Below are positions 3,452 through 61,727 of a stretch of 64,000 nt of DNA, piece by piece. A program made the position numbers and the translations under genes. The DNA comes from a virus. Taxonomy: Duplodnaviria > Heunggongvirae > Uroviricota > Caudoviricetes. The DNA lies in IMG/VR virus record IMGVR_UViG_2541047850_000005, positions 3,554-67,553 of that record; one strand, given 5' to 3'. The notes under the pieces were generated by a model. The model was not told the DNA's origin. It was given only the letters and a program-made list of their open reading frames with translations, and ran no database searches. The first letter of the stretch is position 1, and each line of letters begins with the position of its first letter.

Positions 3452-3604
3452 CACAACTCCGTAAACAACTTGTTTTCTCAATGTCGTAAATAATACCAGT
3501 AAGAAAACGGCTACAAAGCATATTGATCAGGTGCATGAGCGATATGCAGGTTCTTCCCTGCGGCTATAGAGAAATTAAGCCAGCAATGCTGGCTTTGGTT
3601 GGGA

Positions 3605-9651: not shown

Positions 9652-10041
9652 CTACATCACAGGACAATCATCAAACTCGCCACTTCTTGCGTCGTTGATA
9701 ATGTGAGTGATCACACCAAACACGGCATTGCTGCCCGTGCATCCATCATCATCCTTTGGCAATGCTTCCTTCTTACCAGTTCTTAAATCCTCCAGATGCT
9801 GACGTGGATACTTCCGGTATCTTTTTACGCGATATTCCCCATCCAGAGCACATACAAGAAGAGATCCATCAACAGGAGTGAGTGAGGAATCGACCACCAG
9901 CAATGCACCCTGCAATATTCCCTCACGATGATGGCTATCAGCTGCCCTCAAGAAGTAGGTCGCTGAAGGATGTCTAATTATCTGCTGATCAAGAGAAATA
10001 CGGCTCTCAGCATAATCCGCCGCAGGAGAGGGGTACCCCAT
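9652..10041 (-). CDS. humD: UmuD'-like protein encoded in pre-processed form (P1 HumD-like)
   Basis: MGYPSPAADYAE.. aligns with UmuD from the Cys24/Gly25 cleavage site onward. The ADSH Ser and VKRYRK Lys are retained. Confidence 0.85.
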   Translation of the reverse strand: MGYPSPAADYAESRISLDQQIIRHPSATYFLRAADSHHREGILQGALLVVDSSLTPVDGSLLVCALDGEYRVKRYRKYPRQHLEDLRTGKKEALPKDDDGCTGSNAVFGVITHIINDARSGEFDDCPVM

Positions 10042-10059: not shown

Positions 10060-10079
10060 TACTGTTTATCTGTACAGTA
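10060..10079. promoter_or_regulatory. LexA (SOS) box upstream of the humD-like gene
   Basis: TACTGTTTATCTGTACAGTA equals CTGT-N8-ACAG, 19 bp upstream of the ATG. Confidence 0.8.
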
Positions 10080-43377: not shown

Positions 43378-45717
43378 TTACTCTTCTACTGACTCGGTGG
43401 GGTTGTCTTTTGCTCTTCGGTCGTCGATTGCCTGCAAAGCCGCAATGATTTCAGCCAGTGGCTTCTCCCGATACATCTCGACGATCTGCGATTTGGTGTA
43501 TTTCTTGTCACCAATTTCAACTCGCCCGCTGGCGTTCTTTGGCAGGTATCCTTCTTCCAGCATGTACTCGACGAGCGATTCGATAACGTCGAGGCCACGA
43601 GTAGGATCGAAGTAGAATTTCCAGGTGCATTTGCCATACGGTGGTGCAACTTTGTTTTTGATGCATTCTGCGCCTACGTCCTGGCCGATCTTCTCTTTAC
43701 CATCCTTCATCACCGATGCACCAAGACGGATACGTACAGAAGCGTAGAACTTCGGTGAATCTCCACCTGGCGACGTAGTAGGGTCGCCAAACATTACACC
43801 GATTTTTGTGCGAACCTGATTCAAGAAGATGATGCAGGCGTTGTATTTGCGTGCCCACAAAGCCAGAGTAGGGAAGTTCGCACTTGTCGCACGAGCCAGT
43901 GCCGTATTGTCGTTCATGTTTAGCTGATCTTTGTCTTTGGCAGTGCCTTCAGCCATCTTTTCGAACTTCTCGGCTTTGGAGTTCGGAACCATAGACGCAA
44001 GTGAGTCAGCCACGATACAGATAGGTGCTGATTCAGGAATAAGCTCTTCATCACGTACCAATTTAAGAATTGTGCCGATCAACTCTACAGAGTCTTCGAA
44101 GGTATCAGGCTGCTTGTATACCCACTGACCGTCATCCTCATCTGCGTTCAGGCCATTGGCTACAGCCAGGCCAACGTCAAAACTGTTTTCATGATCGAGG
44201 AATACCGCCAGACCATCTTGTTTTTGAGCGGAGATCATCGCTGCTGTTGCAAGGAATGTGTTGTGGCTGATAATCCCGTTAGACCAGAAAGAGTGTGTTT
44301 CCGGCATCGCTACGTCGAACGTTGGTGCTTCACCTTCCTCAATAGCCACGACTTCGTCGTAGAATAAGTTAGAGCCAATTACCGCTGCCAGTTGTGCAAA
44401 CAGATGCTCGTTAAAACGATTCTTTCTGCCAATGAAGGAGACATAGATTTCTCGCAGTTTGTCTATTCCGACACGATCGCCGCGGCCAATAACGTGGTCT
44501 ACCAGAGCGTAGTCTTCACGGGTGGTCTTGGTGAGCGACTCGTAGAGTGATTTCACTAAGCCGCTGATGTGCGGAACATAGCCTGAGTAAGTGCGGTCAA
44601 AACCAATGTCCCGTTTGGTTGCCACTGATAAACGTGCCGGAGATTCGAAACCAATCGTTGACAGAAAAAGGTCGTAATTAGAGCCACTGAATGACAGCCG
44701 GTAATATGTATTTTCATAACCCGCGACGTGTTTTTCAGAGATAGTTGACGTAATCCCCAGATTCAGGAGCATGAGGCGAATTTGCTGTAGCAGCAGCCCA
44801 CTCGCGCTCACAACCTCAATGCAGCGACCACCATTGACGTGGCATTCCAGCTCAAAGTAGCCGCGAAGGAATGCAATTTGAGCCTCGCTATTGGCGCGAC
44901 GCACACTCAACGGAACCTGCTTGCCAGCAGCTTTCTCATACTCCAGACCATATTCTTTAAAAAGCAGCGAACGCACCTCTTTGCTAAACAGCACATGGTC
45001 TTCCGAGCCGTTATGTTTTCTCGTAACTGGCATCTTGTCTGATACCAGCGAAATGAGGCGGTAGTACTCATCCTTGATGAATGGATCTGTGTTAGAAAAA
45101 TGCACAGAATTTTCAGAGGCCACGTATCCGTCAGCAATTAAATAGCCCATCAGTTTTGCGATATTGGCATCCAAGTGCTGATCGCCGAATTGATGTGTGC
45201 CAACCATTGAAGGAATCGTGTCGCCTACACTGATTTTTTCAGCATACCGCCAGACGATATTGCCTAAGTCGTCAACCACACGAATTGGGTGACGGAACGT
45301 AGCCTCGATGTAACCCCCTGATGCCAGCTTAATGCGCTTGAATTTGCGACGGTTGTTCCATGTCAGGTGTGAGGTTTTCTCTATCACGCCATTTTCATTG
45401 ATGAGTCCAACGTTATGCTCTACATCGCGAGTAGTGCATGTTGCTTTGTGCCCCTCAATCTCAAACAGTTCTTTCACTGTTACCATTCCACGCTCCGTCA
45501 GCAGCATGGTGTCTGCGGTAACACATTTCCCCGCACTTGGAGGACCGAATACTTCGACGATACGACCACATGGGAAACCGCCATCGTAACGACCGGAAAT
45601 CGCTTTGTTTAACGGAGGAAAGCCTGTGTCAATCCAATGAGTTACTTTCTGAATTTCGTCGTTGCTACCGATTTTCTTTTTCAGAGCAAGTGCCAGTGCG
45701 GATTTTCCTTTTGCCAT
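43378..45717 (-). CDS. recA: RecA recombinase interrupted by an intein
   Basis: The exteins read GRIVEVFGPPSAGK|TFLA.., QPDTFE and FLNQVRTKIGVMFGDPTTSPGG..KFYASVR, which is RecA-like. Confidence 0.9.
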   Translation of the reverse strand: MAKGKSALALALKKKIGSNDEIQKVTHWIDTGFPPLNKAISGRYDGGFPCGRIVEVFGPPSAGKCVTADTMLLTERGMVTVKELFEIEGHKATCTTRDVEHNVGLINENGVIEKTSHLTWNNRRKFKRIKLASGGYIEATFRHPIRVVDDLGNIVWRYAEKISVGDTIPSMVGTHQFGDQHLDANIAKLMGYLIADGYVASENSVHFSNTDPFIKDEYYRLISLVSDKMPVTRKHNGSEDHVLFSKEVRSLLFKEYGLEYEKAAGKQVPLSVRRANSEAQIAFLRGYFELECHVNGGRCIEVVSASGLLLQQIRLMLLNLGITSTISEKHVAGYENTYYRLSFSGSNYDLFLSTIGFESPARLSVATKRDIGFDRTYSGYVPHISGLVKSLYESLTKTTREDYALVDHVIGRGDRVGIDKLREIYVSFIGRKNRFNEHLFAQLAAVIGSNLFYDEVVAIEEGEAPTFDVAMPETHSFWSNGIISHNTFLATAAMISAQKQDGLAVFLDHENSFDVGLAVANGLNADEDDGQWVYKQPDTFEDSVELIGTILKLVRDEELIPESAPICIVADSLASMVPNSKAEKFEKMAEGTAKDKDQLNMNDNTALARATSANFPTLALWARKYNACIIFLNQVRTKIGVMFGDPTTSPGGDSPKFYASVRIRLGASVMKDGKEKIGQDVGAECIKNKVAPPYGKCTWKFYFDPTRGLDVIESLVEYMLEEGYLPKNASGRVEIGDKKYTKSQIVEMYREKPLAEIIAALQAIDDRRAKDNPTESVEE
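44260..45525 (-). other. 422-aa intein with a LAGLIDADG homing-endonuclease domain inside the RecA Walker A
   Basis: Starts with Cys (GK|CVTADT) and ends ..GIISHN|T. LMGYLIADGY and FLRGYFELECH blocks. Confidence 0.85.
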
Positions 45718-45719
45718 GA

Positions 45720-45992
45720 TCAGGCTCCTTTTGTTTCGTTGATTCGTTTTAAAGCGGCGGATTCGTCGAATACAATCGCATCGTGGTTAAGGTGTCTGGA
45801 TACACGAGCGAGGATTTTTACGACCTGCTCGCTGACTAATCCAAACTCGCGATCTGTCGCTTTCATTCCGGCAGCGTCTAGAATTGACGGCAGTGCGATG
45901 ACAGCGTACTCACCGTGATAAAAGACAATCTCTTTTGCCAGTTGGGTAGGGGTGGTTGTAGCGCCATTAATAATCGATTTAAGCATTAGCAA
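45720..45992 (-). CDS. hypothetical protein (90 aa)
   Basis: ORF coupled to both neighbours. Confidence 0.5.
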   Translation of the reverse strand: MLMLKSIINGATTTPTQLAKEIVFYHGEYAVIALPSILDAAGMKATDREFGLVSEQVVKILARVSRHLNHDAIVFDESAALKRINETKGA

Positions 45993-46981
45993 TACCTTTC
46001 GAATGGAAGAACAAACACTTCAAGGTCTTCAAGGAACGAACGGAAATTCAGCTCGTAGCACAGTTGCTCGAATGCTTTCACGTCACGATTGCCTTTGATT
46101 GTTTCGATTTCGGTAGGCGGAAACTTCGTCTCAATCAGGTTCATTAGCGTGATGTTTCTCTTGAACGCTTCGAGCATTCGACAGCCTGTTTTCTCGTTGA
46201 AGGCATTCTTCGCTAGTTTGTTGAAGGCGGTCTTATGACGCCCTTTATTAACCACGATTGAGCCGTCGTTGATGCCGCGTACCATCGTTGCGACACTTCC
46301 CCATTCATGCAGTAGCTCTTTCGCACCGCCAGCACCAATGCCACCAACACCGCTAATGTTGTCCGATTTATCGCCTTGTAATGCTTTTGCTTCCAAAAAT
46401 GCGCGAGGAGTAGCGAATCCTGTCAGCTCCGCAAATTGCTCAAAATTAACCTGCTTGTTTTTGGCGTCTTCGCGCAGGCTTACCCAGCTTACGTTTTCGC
46501 GAACTAACTGAAGCCAGTCGCTATCGCCTGTTAACAGATAGATGTGTTCAACGATTGGCTGCGGTGCAATGCTGGCTACCAGCAGCCCGGCCAGATCATC
46601 CGCTTCTGCATCTTTTGCAATGAGTTGGGTAACTCCAAGCGCGGTCATCATTTTGAGGATGTATGGCTTCTGGATAGCAAAGCCTTCCTTCATCTTTTTC
46701 ATATCAGGATCGTCGTCGCGATTTGCTTTGTAGTCCGGGTAAAAGTCGCGACGCTTGTCACTAAATCCATCCCAAAGAATCATAGGTCGGGCATGGAGGA
46801 TGGAGGCATAACGACGGACGTTCTTAACAAAGCCGAAAGCAGCCTGTACTTCCATTTCGCCGTTGTGCAATTTGTCAGATTGTTGGTGGTAATAACCCAG
46901 GCTATTGCCATCTACGAAGAGATAATTCTCCGGTACATTCCTTCCAAAAAGTAAGGCGTCCGTAGACGCCTTACTGGTCAC
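45986..46981 (-). CDS. 5'-3' exonuclease / flap endonuclease
   Basis: YLFVDGNSLGYY and GDKSDNISGVGGIGAGGAKELL (H3TH). GTG start. Confidence 0.85.
   Translation of the reverse strand: MTSKASTDALLFGRNVPENYLFVDGNSLGYYHQQSDKLHNGEMEVQAAFGFVKNVRRYASILHARPMILWDGFSDKRRDFYPDYKANRDDDPDMKKMKEGFAIQKPYILKMMTALGVTQLIAKDAEADDLAGLLVASIAPQPIVEHIYLLTGDSDWLQLVRENVSWVSLREDAKNKQVNFEQFAELTGFATPRAFLEAKALQGDKSDNISGVGGIGAGGAKELLHEWGSVATMVRGINDGSIVVNKGRHKTAFNKLAKNAFNEKTGCRMLEAFKRNITLMNLIETKFPPTEIETIKGNRDVKAFEQLCYELNFRSFLEDLEVFVLPFERYC
46946..46974 (-). terminator. terminator-like hairpin inside the first 12 codons of the FEN gene
   Basis: GTAAGGCGTCTACGGACGCCTTAC followed by TTTTT on the minus strand. Confidence 0.5.
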
Positions 46982-46990
46982 GTAATGGGA

Positions 46991-48019
46991 TTAAAGAGAG
47001 TCCAGCTCTCTCAGTAGGTCATCCAGACCTTCATCTTCCGTCGCAGATGCGGCTGCTACAGATGTCGCTGCGACTGCTTCAGACTCTTTGACTGATACTG
47101 CAACGGCAGCGGAACTTGCTTCTGGTTTAAATTCAGTTTCAACGGCACGGAGGATTTCTTCATCAACCAGACTGGTTGGTTCAGAAGCTGGGGTGTGAGC
47201 GGTAGCTACAGCAGTCGCACCCTCCGTATGACCAGTGACAGAGCCAAATCCAGGCAGTGCCGCAGCCGATGTTTTCGCGGTTGAGGAAATTGCTGGTGCA
47301 GATGCTGCGGCAGTTGGTGCAGCGATGCCAATCAGACGACCCATAGTGCGAACTGTCGACAGAAGACGAGTTTCATCAGCCTGATTTGCGTATGCGATCA
47401 GATCATGCTGGGTGTTCCAGAATTTATCTTCGATATCGCCTTTGTAGACTTTACGCTTAGGCGAGACGTCATATTTGGTATCGCGACCAGAGCCAGTACG
47501 TTTAATCAGGAATGCGTAGCCTTCCTCTTTGCTCAGTGGATTACCGATATCATCAGCGATGTCTTCGGTGATTGCTTTGCAGATATCATCGAATACAGTA
47601 GACGGCAGCTCGATTAACTGGCATTTCTCAGCATCTGCGAAATCCTCACGAGCAGAAAGAATGCCGTTGACCAGGTAGCGAGGAGTGGCACGCATTTGAC
47701 CGATGCGTTCTTCCATTGCTTTGTTACCCTTGTGACGAGCGCGACCTTCCATCACCATTTCGCATAGCTGACAAGCGCGACCGTGAGTATGTTGCTCACA
47801 AATATAAGCGTTGGTTGCTTCTTTACCTTCCTCGTTCTGATACTTAACGTAGTGCATACCGAAAGTCTGGAAGAACTTACCGTTTGGGTCGTCTTTATTC
47901 GGGAAGATGCGGATATAGTTGACGCCGTCTTTTAAGCGAGTCAGATCAACGTTGTTACCACGTTTGGCGGCAATGTCTTCACGAGTTTTGTTAAGCAAAT
48001 CAAGTAATGTCTTAGACAT
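46991..48019 (-). CDS. gp32-like single-stranded DNA-binding protein candidate
   Basis: CEQHTHGRACQLC zinc motif, an Ala-rich linker and an acidic tail EDEGLDDLLRELDSL. Confidence 0.55.
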   Translation of the reverse strand: MSKTLLDLLNKTREDIAAKRGNNVDLTRLKDGVNYIRIFPNKDDPNGKFFQTFGMHYVKYQNEEGKEATNAYICEQHTHGRACQLCEMVMEGRARHKGNKAMEERIGQMRATPRYLVNGILSAREDFADAEKCQLIELPSTVFDDICKAITEDIADDIGNPLSKEEGYAFLIKRTGSGRDTKYDVSPKRKVYKGDIEDKFWNTQHDLIAYANQADETRLLSTVRTMGRLIGIAAPTAAASAPAISSTAKTSAAALPGFGSVTGHTEGATAVATAHTPASEPTSLVDEEILRAVETEFKPEASSAAVAVSVKESEAVAATSVAAASATEDEGLDDLLRELDSL

Positions 48020-48136: not shown

Positions 48137-48568
48137 TCAACGGGGAGTAATAAAGCGTTCAGAGCCTAATCGCTCTAATTCAACGATGGCCATCTTTGAC
48201 GCCTGAACGATCATGTCTCGGCGATGCGAAAAGGCGGCGACAGCATGTTTGTATATGTCTGCGATGTGCCGTGCTTCATCCAACTTCTGCCGTTTAGACA
48301 GATACTGTGGGTTTGTTTTAACCTTAGCGTCCAGTACAGATTCGTTGAACTTAATGCCGTTCATACTCAAGTTCTTACGCTCTGTGTCGTATAGCTTTGC
48401 TTCAACAGCTTCAAGGTTAAGTTTTGCTTCTGCGACACTTCTTTCTGCATGGGCGAGTTTTGAGCCATATTCCATCAACAGGCGGGGTTGTCTACGCCAG
48501 ACTTCCTCCAGATTGTCTCGGTCAAACTCGAGATCAGACATTATTTTCTCGTAAATATCGGTGATCAT
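48137..48568 (-). CDS. hypothetical coiled-coil protein (143 aa)
   Basis: ORF downstream of dnaE. Confidence 0.6.
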   Translation of the reverse strand: MITDIYEKIMSDLEFDRDNLEEVWRRQPRLLMEYGSKLAHAERSVAEAKLNLEAVEAKLYDTERKNLSMNGIKFNESVLDAKVKTNPQYLSKRQKLDEARHIADIYKHAVAAFSHRRDMIVQASKMAIVELERLGSERFITPR

Positions 48569-56390: not shown

Positions 56391-56777
56391 ATGTCTGACA
56401 AAAACATTGAATTTATAGAAAGTCGCTATGCTGCTTTTATCGCAGGGCTGATTGAATCCTCACCTATGAGTCAGGCCCAAATAGCCAGACTTATTGGTTA
56501 TAAAAATGCCAACAACCTTTCTTTAATTAAAAGTGGTAAAATTCCTTTGCCTATCGATAAGGTTCGTCCGCTGGCGTTGGCGCTGGGTATTGAGCCAAGT
56601 CGTCTTATGATGATGGTGCTGGAAGAACGCCAACCTGAACTCGCAGCATTTTTATACAAAGAAGGCACCGCTCCTCTTAACGAGGACGAAAAACAGGTTC
56701 TTGCTGCATATAACGAGCGATTCGGTAAAGAGAAAGGCGCATCACAAAAGGTTGTTGAGGCCATAAAGTCTCTATGA
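56391..56777 (+). CDS. XRE-family helix-turn-helix regulator (repressor candidate)
   Basis: SQAQIARLIGYKNANNLSLIKSGK HTH. The only obvious HTH protein in the block. Confidence 0.8.
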   Translation: MSDKNIEFIESRYAAFIAGLIESSPMSQAQIARLIGYKNANNLSLIKSGKIPLPIDKVRPLALALGIEPSRLMMMVLEERQPELAAFLYKEGTAPLNEDEKQVLAAYNERFGKEKGASQKVVEAIKSL

Positions 56778-57875
56778 AAAATTTAGACGAATAAGCTCTG
56801 TTGATAGACGATCTCCCTTGAATTTGTGGTCAATTTCGTCTAAATCCGGTTGCTCTACGATTGATGCGATGTACGTTGAGAAACTTTCTAAGGCGTCTCG
56901 CATCTCGTCCATATAATCGTGCCGGTCGTAGACCCGATCTATCCCCTCAAGACTGTGGTTCATGATTTTGCGTGATACCTCCTGGCTTATGCCTAATGCT
57001 GGGAAGTAACTACGCGCAGTACGACGCAAATCTCGGGGTGTAAATGGCGCAAGCTCCATCAGTTCTGGTCGTTCCAGAATACGACGTAATGCCTGGGCTA
57101 TTGCCACTTTAGACATAGGAAGGTCTTTCCCGATTTTTTTATTCGAAGGCACGAGCCACTGGCTGTCTTTACCGTATTCGAACAACTCTTCAATGCATGT
57201 GCGCATTAATGTGCTTAAAGGCAGCGAATGCTCACGTGCTGACTTGTTTCTCTTGCCTTGATTCCAAACTCCACGCTTAAGATTGAACTCACTTTTTTTA
57301 GCCCTCAGTACTTCGTCAGGTCGTCTTGCTGATACAAGACACAGCCTGGCCGCCCATTTTGTACCAGCGCACACATTGAAGTAGTCCCATATATTCCAGA
57401 ACACCCATACCTCTGCGTCGGTCAGCTTCCGCTCGCGAGGTGTGGGCTTTGCGCCACCGGCAACTTTGTTTAGTGACATATCGTTTAACGGTGACACGTC
57501 TATCATCCCCTGGAAGGCGCACCAGCTAAGGAACTGCTTCATCAGAGAGAAAACGCGGCGGCCCATAACAATTTTGCCATCCAGTATTAGTGGGTTGACC
57601 AGTTGGTTCACCATGAACCTATTAATGTCACTTACTTTTACATCGGCAATGTGCGGCAAAACATGTATCAAAATACAATGAACAGCGATCTCTGGCCGAC
57701 GTCTGGTTATCAGCAGAGATAAGCGAGTGAATAACATGAATGCGTCCGAGAATTTCATATCATTGCTAACCTGCGAGATCATAACGGCCTGCATTTGAGA
57801 TGCTCTTTCGAGATACTCAATCGCCTCTTTTGAGGTGTTCTCAGCAGCGCGTGCTCTGTCAAAGCTATTTTTCAT
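56772..57875 (-). CDS. int: tyrosine recombinase/integrase
   Basis: ..RDLRRTARS.. and ..MNHSLEGIDRVYDRHDY (R, H-x-x-R-like, Y). Confidence 0.88.
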   Translation of the reverse strand: MKNSFDRARAAENTSKEAIEYLERASQMQAVMISQVSNDMKFSDAFMLFTRLSLLITRRRPEIAVHCILIHVLPHIADVKVSDINRFMVNQLVNPLILDGKIVMGRRVFSLMKQFLSWCAFQGMIDVSPLNDMSLNKVAGGAKPTPRERKLTDAEVWVFWNIWDYFNVCAGTKWAARLCLVSARRPDEVLRAKKSEFNLKRGVWNQGKRNKSAREHSLPLSTLMRTCIEELFEYGKDSQWLVPSNKKIGKDLPMSKVAIAQALRRILERPELMELAPFTPRDLRRTARSYFPALGISQEVSRKIMNHSLEGIDRVYDRHDYMDEMRDALESFSTYIASIVEQPDLDEIDHKFKGDRLSTELIRLNFS

Positions 57876-57901: not shown

Positions 57902-57921
57902 TACTGTATAAGTAAACAGTA
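57902..57921. promoter_or_regulatory. LexA (SOS) box overlapping the -10 of the recombinase gene
   Basis: TACTGTATAAGTAAACAGTA equals CTGT-N8-ACAG. TAATAT lies adjacent on the coding strand. Confidence 0.75.
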
Positions 57922-58407: not shown

Positions 58408-59190
58408 TTATTTTGAGATATATAAAGTTTTGTGTGGCTGTTTATTTTTCAGGTAAAATTGTTTAGGTGTCATATTGAAGTACCTCTTAAACACTGAGAT
58501 AAAGTATGCTTCACTTGTATATCCTAAACACTTGGCGACAAAACCAACTTTCCCAGTGTTGTGTTCTAATAGTTGTAACGCGTTTTTCATTTTAGTATCT
58601 AAAGTTAACTGTGTAAAAGTATAATTTTCCTCTTTTAGTCTTCTCCTCAATGAGGATTCTGAAGTATAAAGAGCGGAAGCCATTTCGCCTATACGCCATT
58701 GTTGAGTTAAGTTTTTTTCTAAGATGGATGATACTTTTTCTGAAATCAAAATTACTGGCATTGACTGCTTAAAGAAGTTTGTAAGTTCATAGGTGTCTAT
58801 GCGGCTGAATAAAAATAACAGTATGCTAACGCGTCTAAAACCTGATTTTTCATTTTTAAGTTGTCTAAAGGCTAACTCTTCTTCCGTGTTCAGACTTGGT
58901 CCGATAATTAATGGTGGTTTGTTGTTGGTCGGGTGTATATTAACGCAGGAGAGAAATTTCACAATAATTCCAATATCCTCATCTTGAATAGTATAAATTT
59001 CGTCAGCAGAAACACGTCCGCTCAAACCAACAATTTTACTCTTTTTGCTAATAATGAAAAATGTATTTTTTAAAAGTTCTATCTCTTGATGCTCATTCAA
59101 ATAAATTTTTATTGATTGATGTTTGACATAAACTAAGGTGTATTTATTAAATATCATGTTTTTAAATGGCAACATGGTATTTTCCATCAC
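58408..59190 (-). CDS. Rns/CfaD/AggR-like AraC-family regulator
   Basis: 260 aa, AT-rich. C-terminal double HTH (..SESSLRRRLKEEN.., ..GYTSEAYFISVFKRYFNMTPKQF). N-terminus resembles Rns. Confidence 0.85.
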   Translation of the reverse strand: MMENTMLPFKNMIFNKYTLVYVKHQSIKIYLNEHQEIELLKNTFFIISKKSKIVGLSGRVSADEIYTIQDEDIGIIVKFLSCVNIHPTNNKPPLIIGPSLNTEEELAFRQLKNEKSGFRRVSILLFLFSRIDTYELTNFFKQSMPVILISEKVSSILEKNLTQQWRIGEMASALYTSESSLRRRLKEENYTFTQLTLDTKMKNALQLLEHNTGKVGFVAKCLGYTSEAYFISVFKRYFNMTPKQFYLKNKQPHKTLYISK

Positions 59191-59246
59191 GCAAATTTTT
59201 ATATTACCACACCATGATTATGATGTGGTACATACTATATGAATAT

Positions 59247-61727
59247 CTATTCGCAAACTAGGGAGAGTCGACTTATCTTGCTTTGGTTTGCTTTTAATTC
59301 AAATCGTGCGGAGCATTGGCTTTCTTTATTGTCTCCCCATTGGACATGCATTTCACCTCTGTCAGGCATACCACTCATCCATACCTGCCCATCGTTCGAA
59401 ACAATGCTTGTTACACTGATATCTCCGGCTTCTCCTTTTAACGAGGCAATAGCGCCAAAAGGAACGAAATTACCATTTTTTCTAATCAAAGTAATAAGTG
59501 CCTTATGTCCAGATACTACATTAAATTTGGCGTGAACTAACGCCCCACGGGAAGGTACTACCGTTAAATCAGATTTAATTATTTCAGTTTCTTCATTAAC
59601 CTTGTTTACGTCTAGAGATATTCCATTTTTTCTATAGGGTGAAAGGTAAGGAACCACAGCATATCCATTGAAATCTGTGCTAATACCAATACCTCTTTTT
59701 ACTTTGATGTCTTCTACGCCATTAGTGTCGATCAATGCATTAGCTCCGTCAAGAGATAACGGCTGAGACAATACAATCCCTTTTTTGTGTACAACTACTC
59801 CACCGCTAATGCCAAATTGTAATTGTTTTGAGTTATGTTGATGTGACACTGTTGATTGTATCTCTCCCTTGGAGGATTTATATCTCAGCGTTGCATTACC
59901 TGAACTGGAGTCACGACTACCGCTATGATAACCTTCCATGAAACTATAATATAATTGCTGGTCTATAAAATAACCACTCACACCTGCTTGTGTATTTGTG
60001 CTATTTCCTGAATTGTATACATTTGTTGTCAATGATGCATTACTATAGTTCGAAAAAGAACTAAAAGGTACTGAAACTGAAAGATAAACAGATTTATCTA
60101 TATCTTCATATTGTGGTTGTTTATTATAGTTTAATGACAAGGATGTAAATACCTTTTTTACAGGAAACGAATACGATAGCCGAAATTGGCGACTATCTTT
60201 AGCATTTCTATAAGTAGTCCAGTCTGAGGATAAGGTCAATTGGTTAGTATTGCCAATACTTTGTTGCAACTGAGTGGTAATTCTATTTATTTTATTAAAT
60301 TTGGAATTATTACCAATCTTCATCTGTTGATAATCATTAAAAGAATAGAAGTTCTGTGAATTATAAAGTTGCTCTGTCAAATTCAAATAAGTACCTGTAG
60401 ACTCAAATCCTTTCGCAAACATTAGTCGAGTTACAGAACCATTTTCACTTTTTCCATTATCTTTAGACACCGTATCAGAATCGGAGTAGCTCAGATCTAA
60501 TGAAAAAGCACCAATTGAAGATATGTACTTGCCAACTCCAAATGAAGCCGAACTATAGTTTTCGGCAACAATTATTCCACCAAAGATTGTAGTGTCCCAT
60601 CCTATACCCCATGCCGTTGAATATTGTAAGAATAAGGGCTTGTCTTTGAATGAGCTATTGATATCTCTATACTTACCAATTGCTGCGTGATAACGCATGC
60701 GACCTTTACGTTGGAGAATCGGTAATGTTGATGATGACTGTGTAAAGTGTCTAATCTCGCCATTACTTTCTCGTATTTCGATATCCATATCCCCTCCATA
60801 CAAAGGGAAGACATCTTGCAGCTCGAATGGACCTGCAGGAACGTCACCTTGCCAGATTATCATATTATTTTGCTTTACGATTATTTGGGATGGAGTGAAT
60901 GCGATTCCTCTAATTGTAGGGCTGTAAGTGCTCATCCAAGGGACGAGCATGCCATCATCGGACCCTATTGATATCCCTTCAAACGGAAAGCTTTCAAACA
61001 CTCCATCATCAGTTGATGATTGTCCAAATGTCAATTGTCCACCTTGTCCGAAGCTATAGTCATGACGCAAGTAGGTATTCAAATTTGTCCAGCCATATTT
61101 ACTTGAATTCCAGTACCCATTATGTCTCACTCTCCACCCCCCGATATTCAGTCCACTGTTAATTGCCAGTGATTGATTGTTCTTGGATGTTGAGTTTAGC
61201 CTTTGTCGTACATCAGAATAACGGTAATTTACAAGCAGTGAGGTTTCACCATCATCCCATGCTTGAGGTGGTATTTCTGACCACACAGGACGATAGATCC
61301 AACTTTGTGGAATGTTTACACTTAGAATCTGCTTGCTCTTATTGAATTTTACTTCAAACCCTTTGATCTGTTTTGAAAGTTCATTAGAAAGAATACTGCC
61401 ATTAGTTATATTTAAATTCGTTACATCAACCCCCCACTTTTTTAGACTCGTCTCTGTAAGTAGAGGAACAACCTTTCCTTTTCCTGATGATACGAATCGG
61501 ATCGTTTCCGTACCGAATGATTCATTGTTGACTTTAACATCAACAAGATATTCTCCAGGAAGAACTCCGTCCGCATGAGAGAAATAACTTAAATCAGGAG
61601 CATTAACCTTTTTATCATTACCAATATTAATAAATGCAGGATCAAATGTGTAGTTGGTTGCTAACTCTTCTGCATTGCTATAATGTATGACAAAAAAGAC
61701 AAATAAGGCTATTTGTTTTGTTTTCAT
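59247..61727 (-). CDS. fimbrial outer-membrane usher
   Basis: 826 aa, signal peptide, FimD/PapC-like length and beta-rich sequence, positioned between chaperone and regulator. Confidence 0.92.
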   Translation of the reverse strand: MKTKQIALFVFFVIHYSNAEELATNYTFDPAFINIGNDKKVNAPDLSYFSHADGVLPGEYLVDVKVNNESFGTETIRFVSSGKGKVVPLLTETSLKKWGVDVTNLNITNGSILSNELSKQIKGFEVKFNKSKQILSVNIPQSWIYRPVWSEIPPQAWDDGETSLLVNYRYSDVRQRLNSTSKNNQSLAINSGLNIGGWRVRHNGYWNSSKYGWTNLNTYLRHDYSFGQGGQLTFGQSSTDDGVFESFPFEGISIGSDDGMLVPWMSTYSPTIRGIAFTPSQIIVKQNNMIIWQGDVPAGPFELQDVFPLYGGDMDIEIRESNGEIRHFTQSSSTLPILQRKGRMRYHAAIGKYRDINSSFKDKPLFLQYSTAWGIGWDTTIFGGIIVAENYSSASFGVGKYISSIGAFSLDLSYSDSDTVSKDNGKSENGSVTRLMFAKGFESTGTYLNLTEQLYNSQNFYSFNDYQQMKIGNNSKFNKINRITTQLQQSIGNTNQLTLSSDWTTYRNAKDSRQFRLSYSFPVKKVFTSLSLNYNKQPQYEDIDKSVYLSVSVPFSSFSNYSNASLTTNVYNSGNSTNTQAGVSGYFIDQQLYYSFMEGYHSGSRDSSSGNATLRYKSSKGEIQSTVSHQHNSKQLQFGISGGVVVHKKGIVLSQPLSLDGANALIDTNGVEDIKVKRGIGISTDFNGYAVVPYLSPYRKNGISLDVNKVNEETEIIKSDLTVVPSRGALVHAKFNVVSGHKALITLIRKNGNFVPFGAIASLKGEAGDISVTSIVSNDGQVWMSGMPDRGEMHVQWGDNKESQCSARFELKANQSKISRLSLVCE

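Follow-up and report, generated by a model that had tools for sequence, protein, structure and literature searches.

The bond between the Lys and Thr of the Walker A motif is a 'classic' insertion point for inteins that split the phosphate-binding loop (P-loop) (PMC5050341), and P-loop Lys|Thr inteins are known in DnaB, MCM and RFC (PMC4760082). In Pyrococcus RadA, ATPase activity is compromised before the P-loop intein is spliced out (PMC8529194), and P-loop inteins in both RadA and DnaB display conditional splicing (PMC8529194, PMC4760082, PMC6195587). RecA of Mycobacterium tuberculosis also carries an intein, and must be spliced to be active (Davis et al. 1992, as cited in PMC5050341). Here, we describe a 422-amino-acid (aa) insert that splits the Walker A motif of a phage RecA-family recombinase. 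The recombinase gene is part of a 64,000-nt stretch of a Caudoviricetes genome (IMG/VR record IMGVR_UViG_2541047850_000005, positions 3,554 to 67,553), hereafter called the window, to which all coordinates refer unless another record is named. We put at roughly 0.7 the probability that this insert is a P-loop-splitting class-1 intein with a homing endonuclease, that it splices, and that it is mobile in SSU5-like phage-plasmids.

The insert shares its GxxxxGK|T insertion point with the classic P-loop inteins (mycobacteriophage TerL1-a, Pyrococcus horikoshii RadA, DnaB-b, MCM-a and RFC-a). It likewise has a class-1 Cys1, a terminal His-Asn, a +1 Thr and, as host, a RecA-fold/P-loop ATPase of DNA metabolism (PMC5050341, PMC4760082, PMC8529194). 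As RadA is RecA's homologue in archaea, the insertion site is homologous. The present insert differs from these inteins in its enterobacterial phage-plasmid host and its low sequence similarity to them, whereas conditional splicing is a demonstrated property of the RadA intein. The M. tuberculosis RecA intein (PI-MtuI, NF007072) is also a LAGLIDADG-endonuclease intein within RecA, but it occupies another site: in NF007072 the N-extein extends to about position 253 and the intein begins at about 305, far from the P-loop. We considered whether the insert could be an allele of PI-MtuI and rejected this, as the insertion site differs and NF007072 scored 99.9 bits on the extein and 22 on the intein against a cut-off of 1024. 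The different site and the low scores therefore mark an invasion of RecA independent of PI-MtuI. Conceptually, the insert is a textbook P-loop intein and nothing new, and the allele itself is apparently unpublished. No literature on an intein in SSU5-like phage-plasmids was found in a search that did not take in the supplementary tables of the Novikova survey, where RecA insertion sites may be listed; the one review that came up speaks of inteins in an unrelated connection.

The recA precursor is encoded on the minus strand, as are all of its parts, by an uninterrupted open reading frame (ORF) of 779 aa and 86.5 kDa (43378..45717, stop codon included). The N-extein (45526..45717, residues 1-64) ends in GPPSAGK, which is the Walker A motif up to its invariant Lys. 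The intein (44260..45525; 47.5 kDa) takes up precursor residues 65-486, from Cys1 to His421-Asn422, and the C-extein (43378..44259, residues 487-779 plus stop) opens with the +1 Thr487 that completes GKT and holds the remaining RecA core. The junctions read GPPSAGK|CVTADTMLL at residues 64|65 and SNGIISHN|TFLATAAM at 486|487. An original prediction, made from the letters alone, had placed a 422-aa intein at 44260-45525; translation of the ORF showed both coordinates and length to be exact, and the Cys1, terminal His-Asn, +1 Thr and two LAGLIDADG-like blocks that it had named were all located in the 779-aa ORF.

Within the intein, the N-terminal HINT splicing region (45196..45525; intein residues ~1-110, an approximate boundary) contains Cys1 in block A and Thr76-Phe-Arg-His79, of the Thr76-x-x-His79 type, in block B; both blocks are conserved across allelic relatives. 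The C-terminal HINT splicing region (44260..44370, intein 386-422) contains block F (TFDVAMPETHSF, with Asp404) and block G (NGIISHN, with His421-Asn422), and the pattern PTFDV..P.THSF..N...HN is conserved in this region. Between the two lies the LAGLIDADG homing-endonuclease domain with its linker helices (44371..45195; intein ~111-385, approximate boundaries). Its motif 1, LMGYLIADG (45127..45153, intein 125-133), offers Asp132 as a candidate catalytic residue, and motif 2, FLRGYFELECH (44839..44871, intein 219-229), offers Glu227. In addition to Cys1, the intein has three more cysteines at positions 30, 228 and 235. A free-standing endonuclease gene or an intron was considered as an alternative and rejected, as the reading frame is continuous and HINT blocks stand on either side of the endonuclease domain.

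Both Pfam families against which the original prediction proposed to compare the insert matched it above their curated cut-offs: Intein_splicing at 46 bits (cut-off 35.8; E=6e-12, or 3e-11 on the precursor) and LAGLIDADG_3 at 68 bits (cut-off 22.5; E=9e-19, or 4.8e-18 on the precursor). The TIGR01445 intein_Nterm model scored 36.3 bits (cut-off 24.5, E=8e-9) and TIGR01443 intein_Cterm scored 16.9 bits (cut-off 15.6). An AlphaFold2 model of the intein, built on a 12-sequence alignment, had a pLDDT of 86.4 and a pTM of 0.88. Its best PDB match by Foldseek was the TliVMA intein (7qss; E 1e-24, TM 0.72), with further matches to PI-PfuI, PI-PkoII, PhoVMA, PI-SceI, the Mxe GyrA intein and the splicing intermediate 4oz6. 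The endonuclease domain alone matched I-DmoI (TMt 0.62-0.72), I-Tsp061I and the endonuclease domains of PI-PfuI and TliVMA, and Glu227 of motif 2 aligned with the catalytic Asp of the TliVMA motif. The insert is thus predicted to have a HINT fold combined with a double-motif LAGLIDADG pseudo-dimer (alpha-beta-beta-alpha-beta-beta-alpha). This architecture is shared with TliVMA/PhoVMA (7qss, 7qst), PI-PfuI (1dq3) and PI-PkoII (2cw7) at TM 0.6-0.72, and with PI-SceI (1vde) at TM 0.44-0.50, although these solved endonuclease-inteins are only 10-21% identical in sequence and come from archaeal or yeast hosts and other host proteins. Taking sequence and predicted structure together, we regard the 422-aa insert as almost certainly a splicing class-1 intein.

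Closer relatives at the same site were found in metagenomes and in metagenome-assembled genomes (MAGs). The RecA inteins P0007/P0009, P0011, P0016 and P0017 share the GK|C...HN|T site and blocks A, B, F and G with the present intein and are 27-45% identical to it; the RecA P-loop is therefore host to one allelic intein family. These relatives are distant, some of them are without LAGLIDADG motifs, and none has been named or studied. P0011 is from a bacterial MAG (GCA_027484465.1, 3001-5166), where it interrupts a bona fide bacterial RecA with a RecA_C domain and has lost its LAGLIDADG motifs. P0007/P0009, on a phage-like 102-kb metagenomic contig (6001-8217), is a RecA intein that has retained them. 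The nearest phage-borne relatives, at 31-34% full-length identity, lie in the helicases of Twort-like phages of Staphylococcus, Listeria and Enterococcus and in RecA of Bacillus phage fHSPT3. Some of these are annotated as inteins, but they mostly occupy a different host gene and belong to phages of Gram-positive hosts. A hidden Markov model built from the family matched only the recA ORF in the window, which yielded no second intein.

Removal of the insert had been predicted to restore the P-loop and the RecA core, and this was borne out. The joined exteins (357 aa, 39.0 kDa) contain GPPSAGKT, QPDT, FLNQVRTKIGVMFGDPTTSPGG and KFYASVR, and they match Pfam RecA (PF00154) in one continuous stretch at 145.8 bits (cut-off 27), whereas the precursor matches it at 125.7 bits in two separated pieces. 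The computed mass agrees with the predicted spliced product of about 39 kDa, for which the predicted ligation junction peptide is SAGK-TFLATAAMISAQK. In the stretch GRIVEVFGPPSAGKTFLATAAM, the joined exteins align to E. coli RecA without a gap across the junction, at GPESSGK72|T73, and the insert therefore lies between the equivalents of K72 and T73.

The original prediction had spoken of a RecA gene. Membership of the RecA family stands on the Pfam score, but the protein does not reach the cellular RecA equivalog, TIGR02012 (153.7 bits, cut-off 325.3), and a Pfam search of the joined exteins reported no RecA_C domain. The joined exteins match PHROG 97, 'UvsX-like recombinase', at E 1e-91. Among PDB entries, bacterial RecA proteins were matched at about 1e-31 to 1e-35 and phage recombinase/UvsX structures at E 1e-10 and 2e-9, so that, judged by its matches, the host protein resembles bacterial RecA more closely than it does UvsX structures of the T4 type. 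We have named it a phage RecA-family recombinase because its matches are of the RecA/UvsX type, yet TIGR02012 remains below its cut-off.

Splicing would be expected to proceed as follows. The 86.5-kDa precursor would lack a functional P-loop and be inactive until spliced, which we infer because the P-loop is split and because of the Pyrococcus RadA precedent. By the standard class-1 route, an N-S acyl shift at Cys1 would be followed by attack of the +1 Thr on the thioester. Asn422 would then cyclise, aided by His421 and Asp404, and an O-N shift would complete the reaction. Splicing would release a free 47.5-kDa endonuclease and leave a 39-kDa RecA whose GPPSAGKT is intact. Homing would take place where occupied and empty elements meet in one cell, for example when a phage infects a carrier of a related plasmid-prophage: cleavage of the empty recA by the endonuclease at a GGKAAA|ACN site would be followed by repair off the occupied copy, which would transfer the intein together with a few flanking bases. 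Homing may itself be catalysed by the very recombinase that the intein interrupts.

Both forms of the gene are found in nature. The window and its recA precursor gene are 100% identical to Escherichia phage PhiR41_1 (PV340561), whose annotation calls the gene product a 'hypothetical protein', and the precursor is 98% identical to that of phage Cyrano (annotated 'RecA') and 91% identical to that of Klebsiella phage vB_KpnS_p4727. These three isolated phages, all of which carry the occupied allele, are SSU5-like phage-plasmids. Uninterrupted recA genes, shorter by exactly 1266 nt, are present in Escherichia phage CMS-2020a, SSU5 and Klebsiella phage 1825. In DNA sequence, the junction of these empty alleles is GGG AAA|ACG, i.e. 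G-K|T. Inteinless homologues with a different junction had been named beforehand as what would speak against the original prediction; those found have the same GK|T junction, and the predicted junction is upheld. The empty site is GCAGGGAAA|ACGTTCCTT in CMS-2020a (the CMS-2020a-type site is also given as CCAAGTGCAGGGAAA|ACGTTCCTTGCAAC), GCTGGTAAA|ACCTTCCTG in Klebsiella phage 1825 and GCCGGTAAA|ACCTTTTTG in SSU5. In two CMS-2020a records the mature protein is 100% identical over 342 aligned residues (16-357); the identity is 95% for SSU5 and approximately 93% for several Klebsiella phages with empty alleles.

The intein and its host gene have diverged to very different degrees. Between PhiR41_1 and Klebsiella p4727, DNA identity is 98.1% in the intein, 79.7% in the N-extein, 81-84% in the C-extein and 49-72% in the flanks. 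More widely, the intein DNA is ~98% identical among Escherichia, Klebsiella, Enterobacter and Citrobacter plasmids, and the exteins ~80%. The between-genus synonymous divergence (dS, Nei-Gojobori) is ~0.05 for the intein and 1.2-2.0, a saturated value, for the exteins. By this measure, the host genes are 20-40 times older than the intein in at least four genera.

A footprint of transfer is also seen next to the insertion site, in a comparison made on extein-only sequences. Four independent lineage pairs show differences between the occupied allele and the nearest empty one at synonymous positions that flank the junction. Between Klebsiella p4727 and phage 1825 the differing extein positions are 186, 189 and 195, with no further difference before 543; PhiR41_1 and CMS-2020a differ on the junction side at 186 and 195; and Enterobacter and SSU5 differ at 186, 189, 195, 198, 199, 201, 204 and 210. 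GGG AAA|ACA TTC CT is common to all occupied alleles, whereas empty alleles retain lineage-specific wobble bases. Clustering within a 20-nt window at the junction gave hypergeometric P values of 0.003, 0.041, 0.007 and 1.6e-5 for the four pairs, and it matches the short co-conversion tract expected from double-strand-break repair at the insertion site. The footprint also implies that the empty alleles were never invaded and do not stem from precise intein loss. A homing signature is thus read from the alignments in each of its parts, namely an element younger than its host gene, co-converted flanks and sporadic occupancy.

Two further patterns were noted in these comparisons. PhiR41_1 and CMS-2020a show five more synonymous differences at positions 90-141 of the N-extein (45526-45717) and no differences in the remaining 879 nt of the C-extein; the N-extein differences may represent a longer, one-sided upstream co-conversion tract. 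K. pneumoniae pRHBSTW-00510_5 has 17 synonymous differences from other Klebsiella copies within intein codons 1-110 and almost none beyond, which suggests recombination between two intein lineages.

Selection on the intein was assessed against a divergent copy. E. albertii p3RM15115 (CP043243.1, 1306-3150) carries an intact intein with 93% DNA identity and a dS of 0.27, next to exteins with a dS of 0.05-0.12, and it represents a second intein lineage. Its recA C-extein is broken after approximately gene nt 1770 by unrelated sequence. Relative to this copy, the intein has 66 synonymous and 22 non-synonymous differences, of which 35 and 17, respectively, are in the endonuclease domain. For the ratio of non-synonymous to synonymous divergence (dN/dS), the N-terminal splicing region gives 0.03, the C-terminal one 0.08 and the endonuclease domain 0.13. 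Both the splicing and the endonuclease activities appear to be under purifying selection, because dN/dS is 0.03-0.08 for the former and 0.13 for the latter. Between the C-exteins of two occupied alleles, 22 synonymous substitutions stand against one non-synonymous substitution. Some copies in the plasmid database are irregular: CP059946.1 has a recA match split in two that spans 3120 nt, as if ~780 nt had been inserted, and NZ_CP075717.1 and CP057895.1 keep just 3' intein fragments. These three may be decaying or rearranged copies.

The intein is widespread among plasmids. In PLSDB, the whole recA gene matches 736 plasmids and the intein alone matches 248, 236 of them at 95-99% identity; the intein-bearing ORF is intact in at least 237. 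By genus, the intein matches 123 plasmids of Escherichia (recA, 229), 71 of Klebsiella (269), 41 of Enterobacter (91), six of Citrobacter (21), two of Shigella (8), two of Cronobacter (9), one of Salmonella (42) and none of Yersinia (63). It is also present in one Kluyvera plasmid and one plasmid from an uncultured bacterium. The gene occurs in 250 of 5426 complete E. coli genomes, on a plasmid in every case; the occupied form accounts for 114 of the 250, or about 2% of the genomes (114/5426). RefSeq labels for the ORF include 'LAGLIDADG family homing endonuclease', 'hint domain-containing protein' and 'recombinase RecA', and for Enterobacter 'intein-containing recombinase RecA'. PHROG 9666, which is based on the same 779-aa protein, is labelled 'unknown function'.

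Several observations weigh against an intein that splices and is still homing. Homologous recombination of related plasmids could shift the intein without an endonuclease. Motif 2, of putative activity, ends in E-C and not D-G, and dN/dS in the endonuclease (0.13-0.27) is looser than in the exteins (0.01). The same-site relatives P0011 and P0016 are without LAGLIDADG motifs, and endonuclease decay thus occurs in the allelic family. In addition, recA alleles are broken in E. albertii p3RM15115 and in CP059946; recA is therefore dispensable for plasmid maintenance, and selection for splicing may be weaker than it would be in an essential gene. The degenerate endonuclease domains of the two relatives and the non-canonical ELEC motif would suit an intein that splices while its endonuclease is dead or dying, and that is passed on by vertical inheritance and by ordinary homologous recombination between co-resident SSU5-like plasmids. 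Such plasmids do recombine freely, as seen in the mosaic intein of pRHBSTW-00510_5 and in patchy extein identities. Nonetheless, neither catalytic acidic residue has been lost, and dN/dS is 0.13 in the endonuclease domain. The transferred tract stops within ~3-20 nt of the intein borders in four lineages, as break repair gives, and random recombination break-points would be unlikely to fall so near the borders each time. An intein 20-40 times younger than the host genes in at least four genera also argues against this explanation, which we consider unlikely; the endonuclease is probably active in homing at present.

Two other explanations concern splicing itself. If the insert no longer spliced, the occupied recA would be a pseudogene, tolerated as host RecA takes its place; plasmids with a broken recA do persist, and many records label the ORF as a homing endonuclease only. 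Against this, the splicing residues are all intact, the HINT regions evolve at a dN/dS of 0.03-0.08, the ORF is intact in at least 237 plasmids, the C-exteins of two occupied alleles show almost exclusively synonymous change (22 versus 1), and isolated phages carry the occupied allele. This makes a pseudogene highly improbable. Alternatively, the intein could have been co-opted as a post-translational switch in which conditional splicing, in response to redox, temperature, DNA damage or the lytic cycle, gates the recombinase. P-loop inteins of RadA and DnaB do splice conditionally (PMC8529194, PMC4760082, PMC6195587), Cys1 is joined by the cysteines at 30, 228 and 235, and about half of the E. 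coli carriers retain the intein. There is thus a slim chance that an intein-held, inactive recombinase couples RecA to a signal such as redox (via Cys1 and Cys30/228/235) or prophage induction. If true, the phage-plasmid could pass from quiet maintenance as a plasmid to lytic replication dependent on recombination by way of a post-translational switch. However, closely related empty alleles occur alongside and encode an identical mature protein over the aligned residues, so the intein is not needed, and the recent horizontal spread and co-conversion footprint fit a selfish element; we therefore doubt that the intein serves as a switch. The reading that we favour remains a splicing P-loop intein with a homing endonuclease, which is apparently sweeping SSU5-like plasmids of Escherichia, Klebsiella, Enterobacter and Citrobacter at present as a selfish homing element.

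The recombinase gene belongs to a recombination module, a string of minus-strand genes with an exonuclease and a gp32-like gene. Upstream of recA are a small conserved 90-aa ORF (45720..45992; PHROG 2207, function unknown), which is also present in SSU5 and in plasmid loci, and a 5'-3' exonuclease gene (45986..46981; Pfam 5_3_exonuc_N and 5_3_exonuc, PHROG 107). These are followed by a gp32-like single-strand DNA-binding protein gene (46991..48019; Pfam gp32, 224.7 bits) and a gene labelled 'UvsY recombination mediator' in Cyrano (48137..48568), a label that is unconfirmed, with no Pfam match and a PHROG of unknown function. The stop codon of the 90-aa ORF abuts the recA start codon (45717-45720), which suggests translational coupling within the exonuclease-ORF-recA string.

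The original prediction had further described the element as SOS-wired. Two strong LexA boxes are present in the window, where 0.03 would be expected by chance. One is near-consensus (TACTGTTTATCTGTACAGTA, 10060-10079), and its CTGT-N8-ACAG core lies 20 nt upstream of a UmuD'/HumD-like gene on the minus strand (9652..10041; 129 aa, PHROG 811, Pfam Peptidase_S24) that starts without the cleavable N-terminal part. A regular-expression search for the canonical UmuD GDSM motif found no humD; the gene was located via the Cyrano annotation and confirmed by PHROG and Pfam. The other box (TACTGTATAAGTAAACAGTA, 57902-57921) is ~27 nt upstream of a tyrosine-integrase gene (56772-57875, minus strand), which suggests, from its position, SOS control of the integrase in this plasmid-prophage. 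No LexA box was found near recA, the only strong boxes in the window being those at 10060 and 57902. As both are far from recA, SOS control of recA is unsupported, and the description applies to the HumD-like and integrase genes but not demonstrably to the recombinase itself. Beside the integrase, minus-strand ORFs at 58408-61727 resemble, on reading the sequence, an AraC-type regulator (260 aa) and a fimbrial usher (826 aa), and may be bacterial cargo of the phage-plasmid.

Hundreds of records are mislabelled 'hypothetical protein' or homing endonuclease, which masks the recombinase of clinically widespread plasmid-prophages. The intein endonuclease would add a new rare cutter whose target region is known. 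Laboratory E. coli routinely serves as an intein-free expression host. Here, an apparently active intein and homing endonuclease are found on plasmid-prophages of E. coli, Klebsiella, Enterobacter and Citrobacter. The near-isogenic occupied and empty pair, PhiR41_1 and CMS-2020a, provides a genetically tractable natural system in E. coli for measuring how the intein homes, how flanks are co-converted and what it costs in fitness. The interest of this intein lies in its frequency and apparent continuing mobility among plasmid-prophages of E. coli and Klebsiella, which supply natural occupied and empty pairs for experiments.

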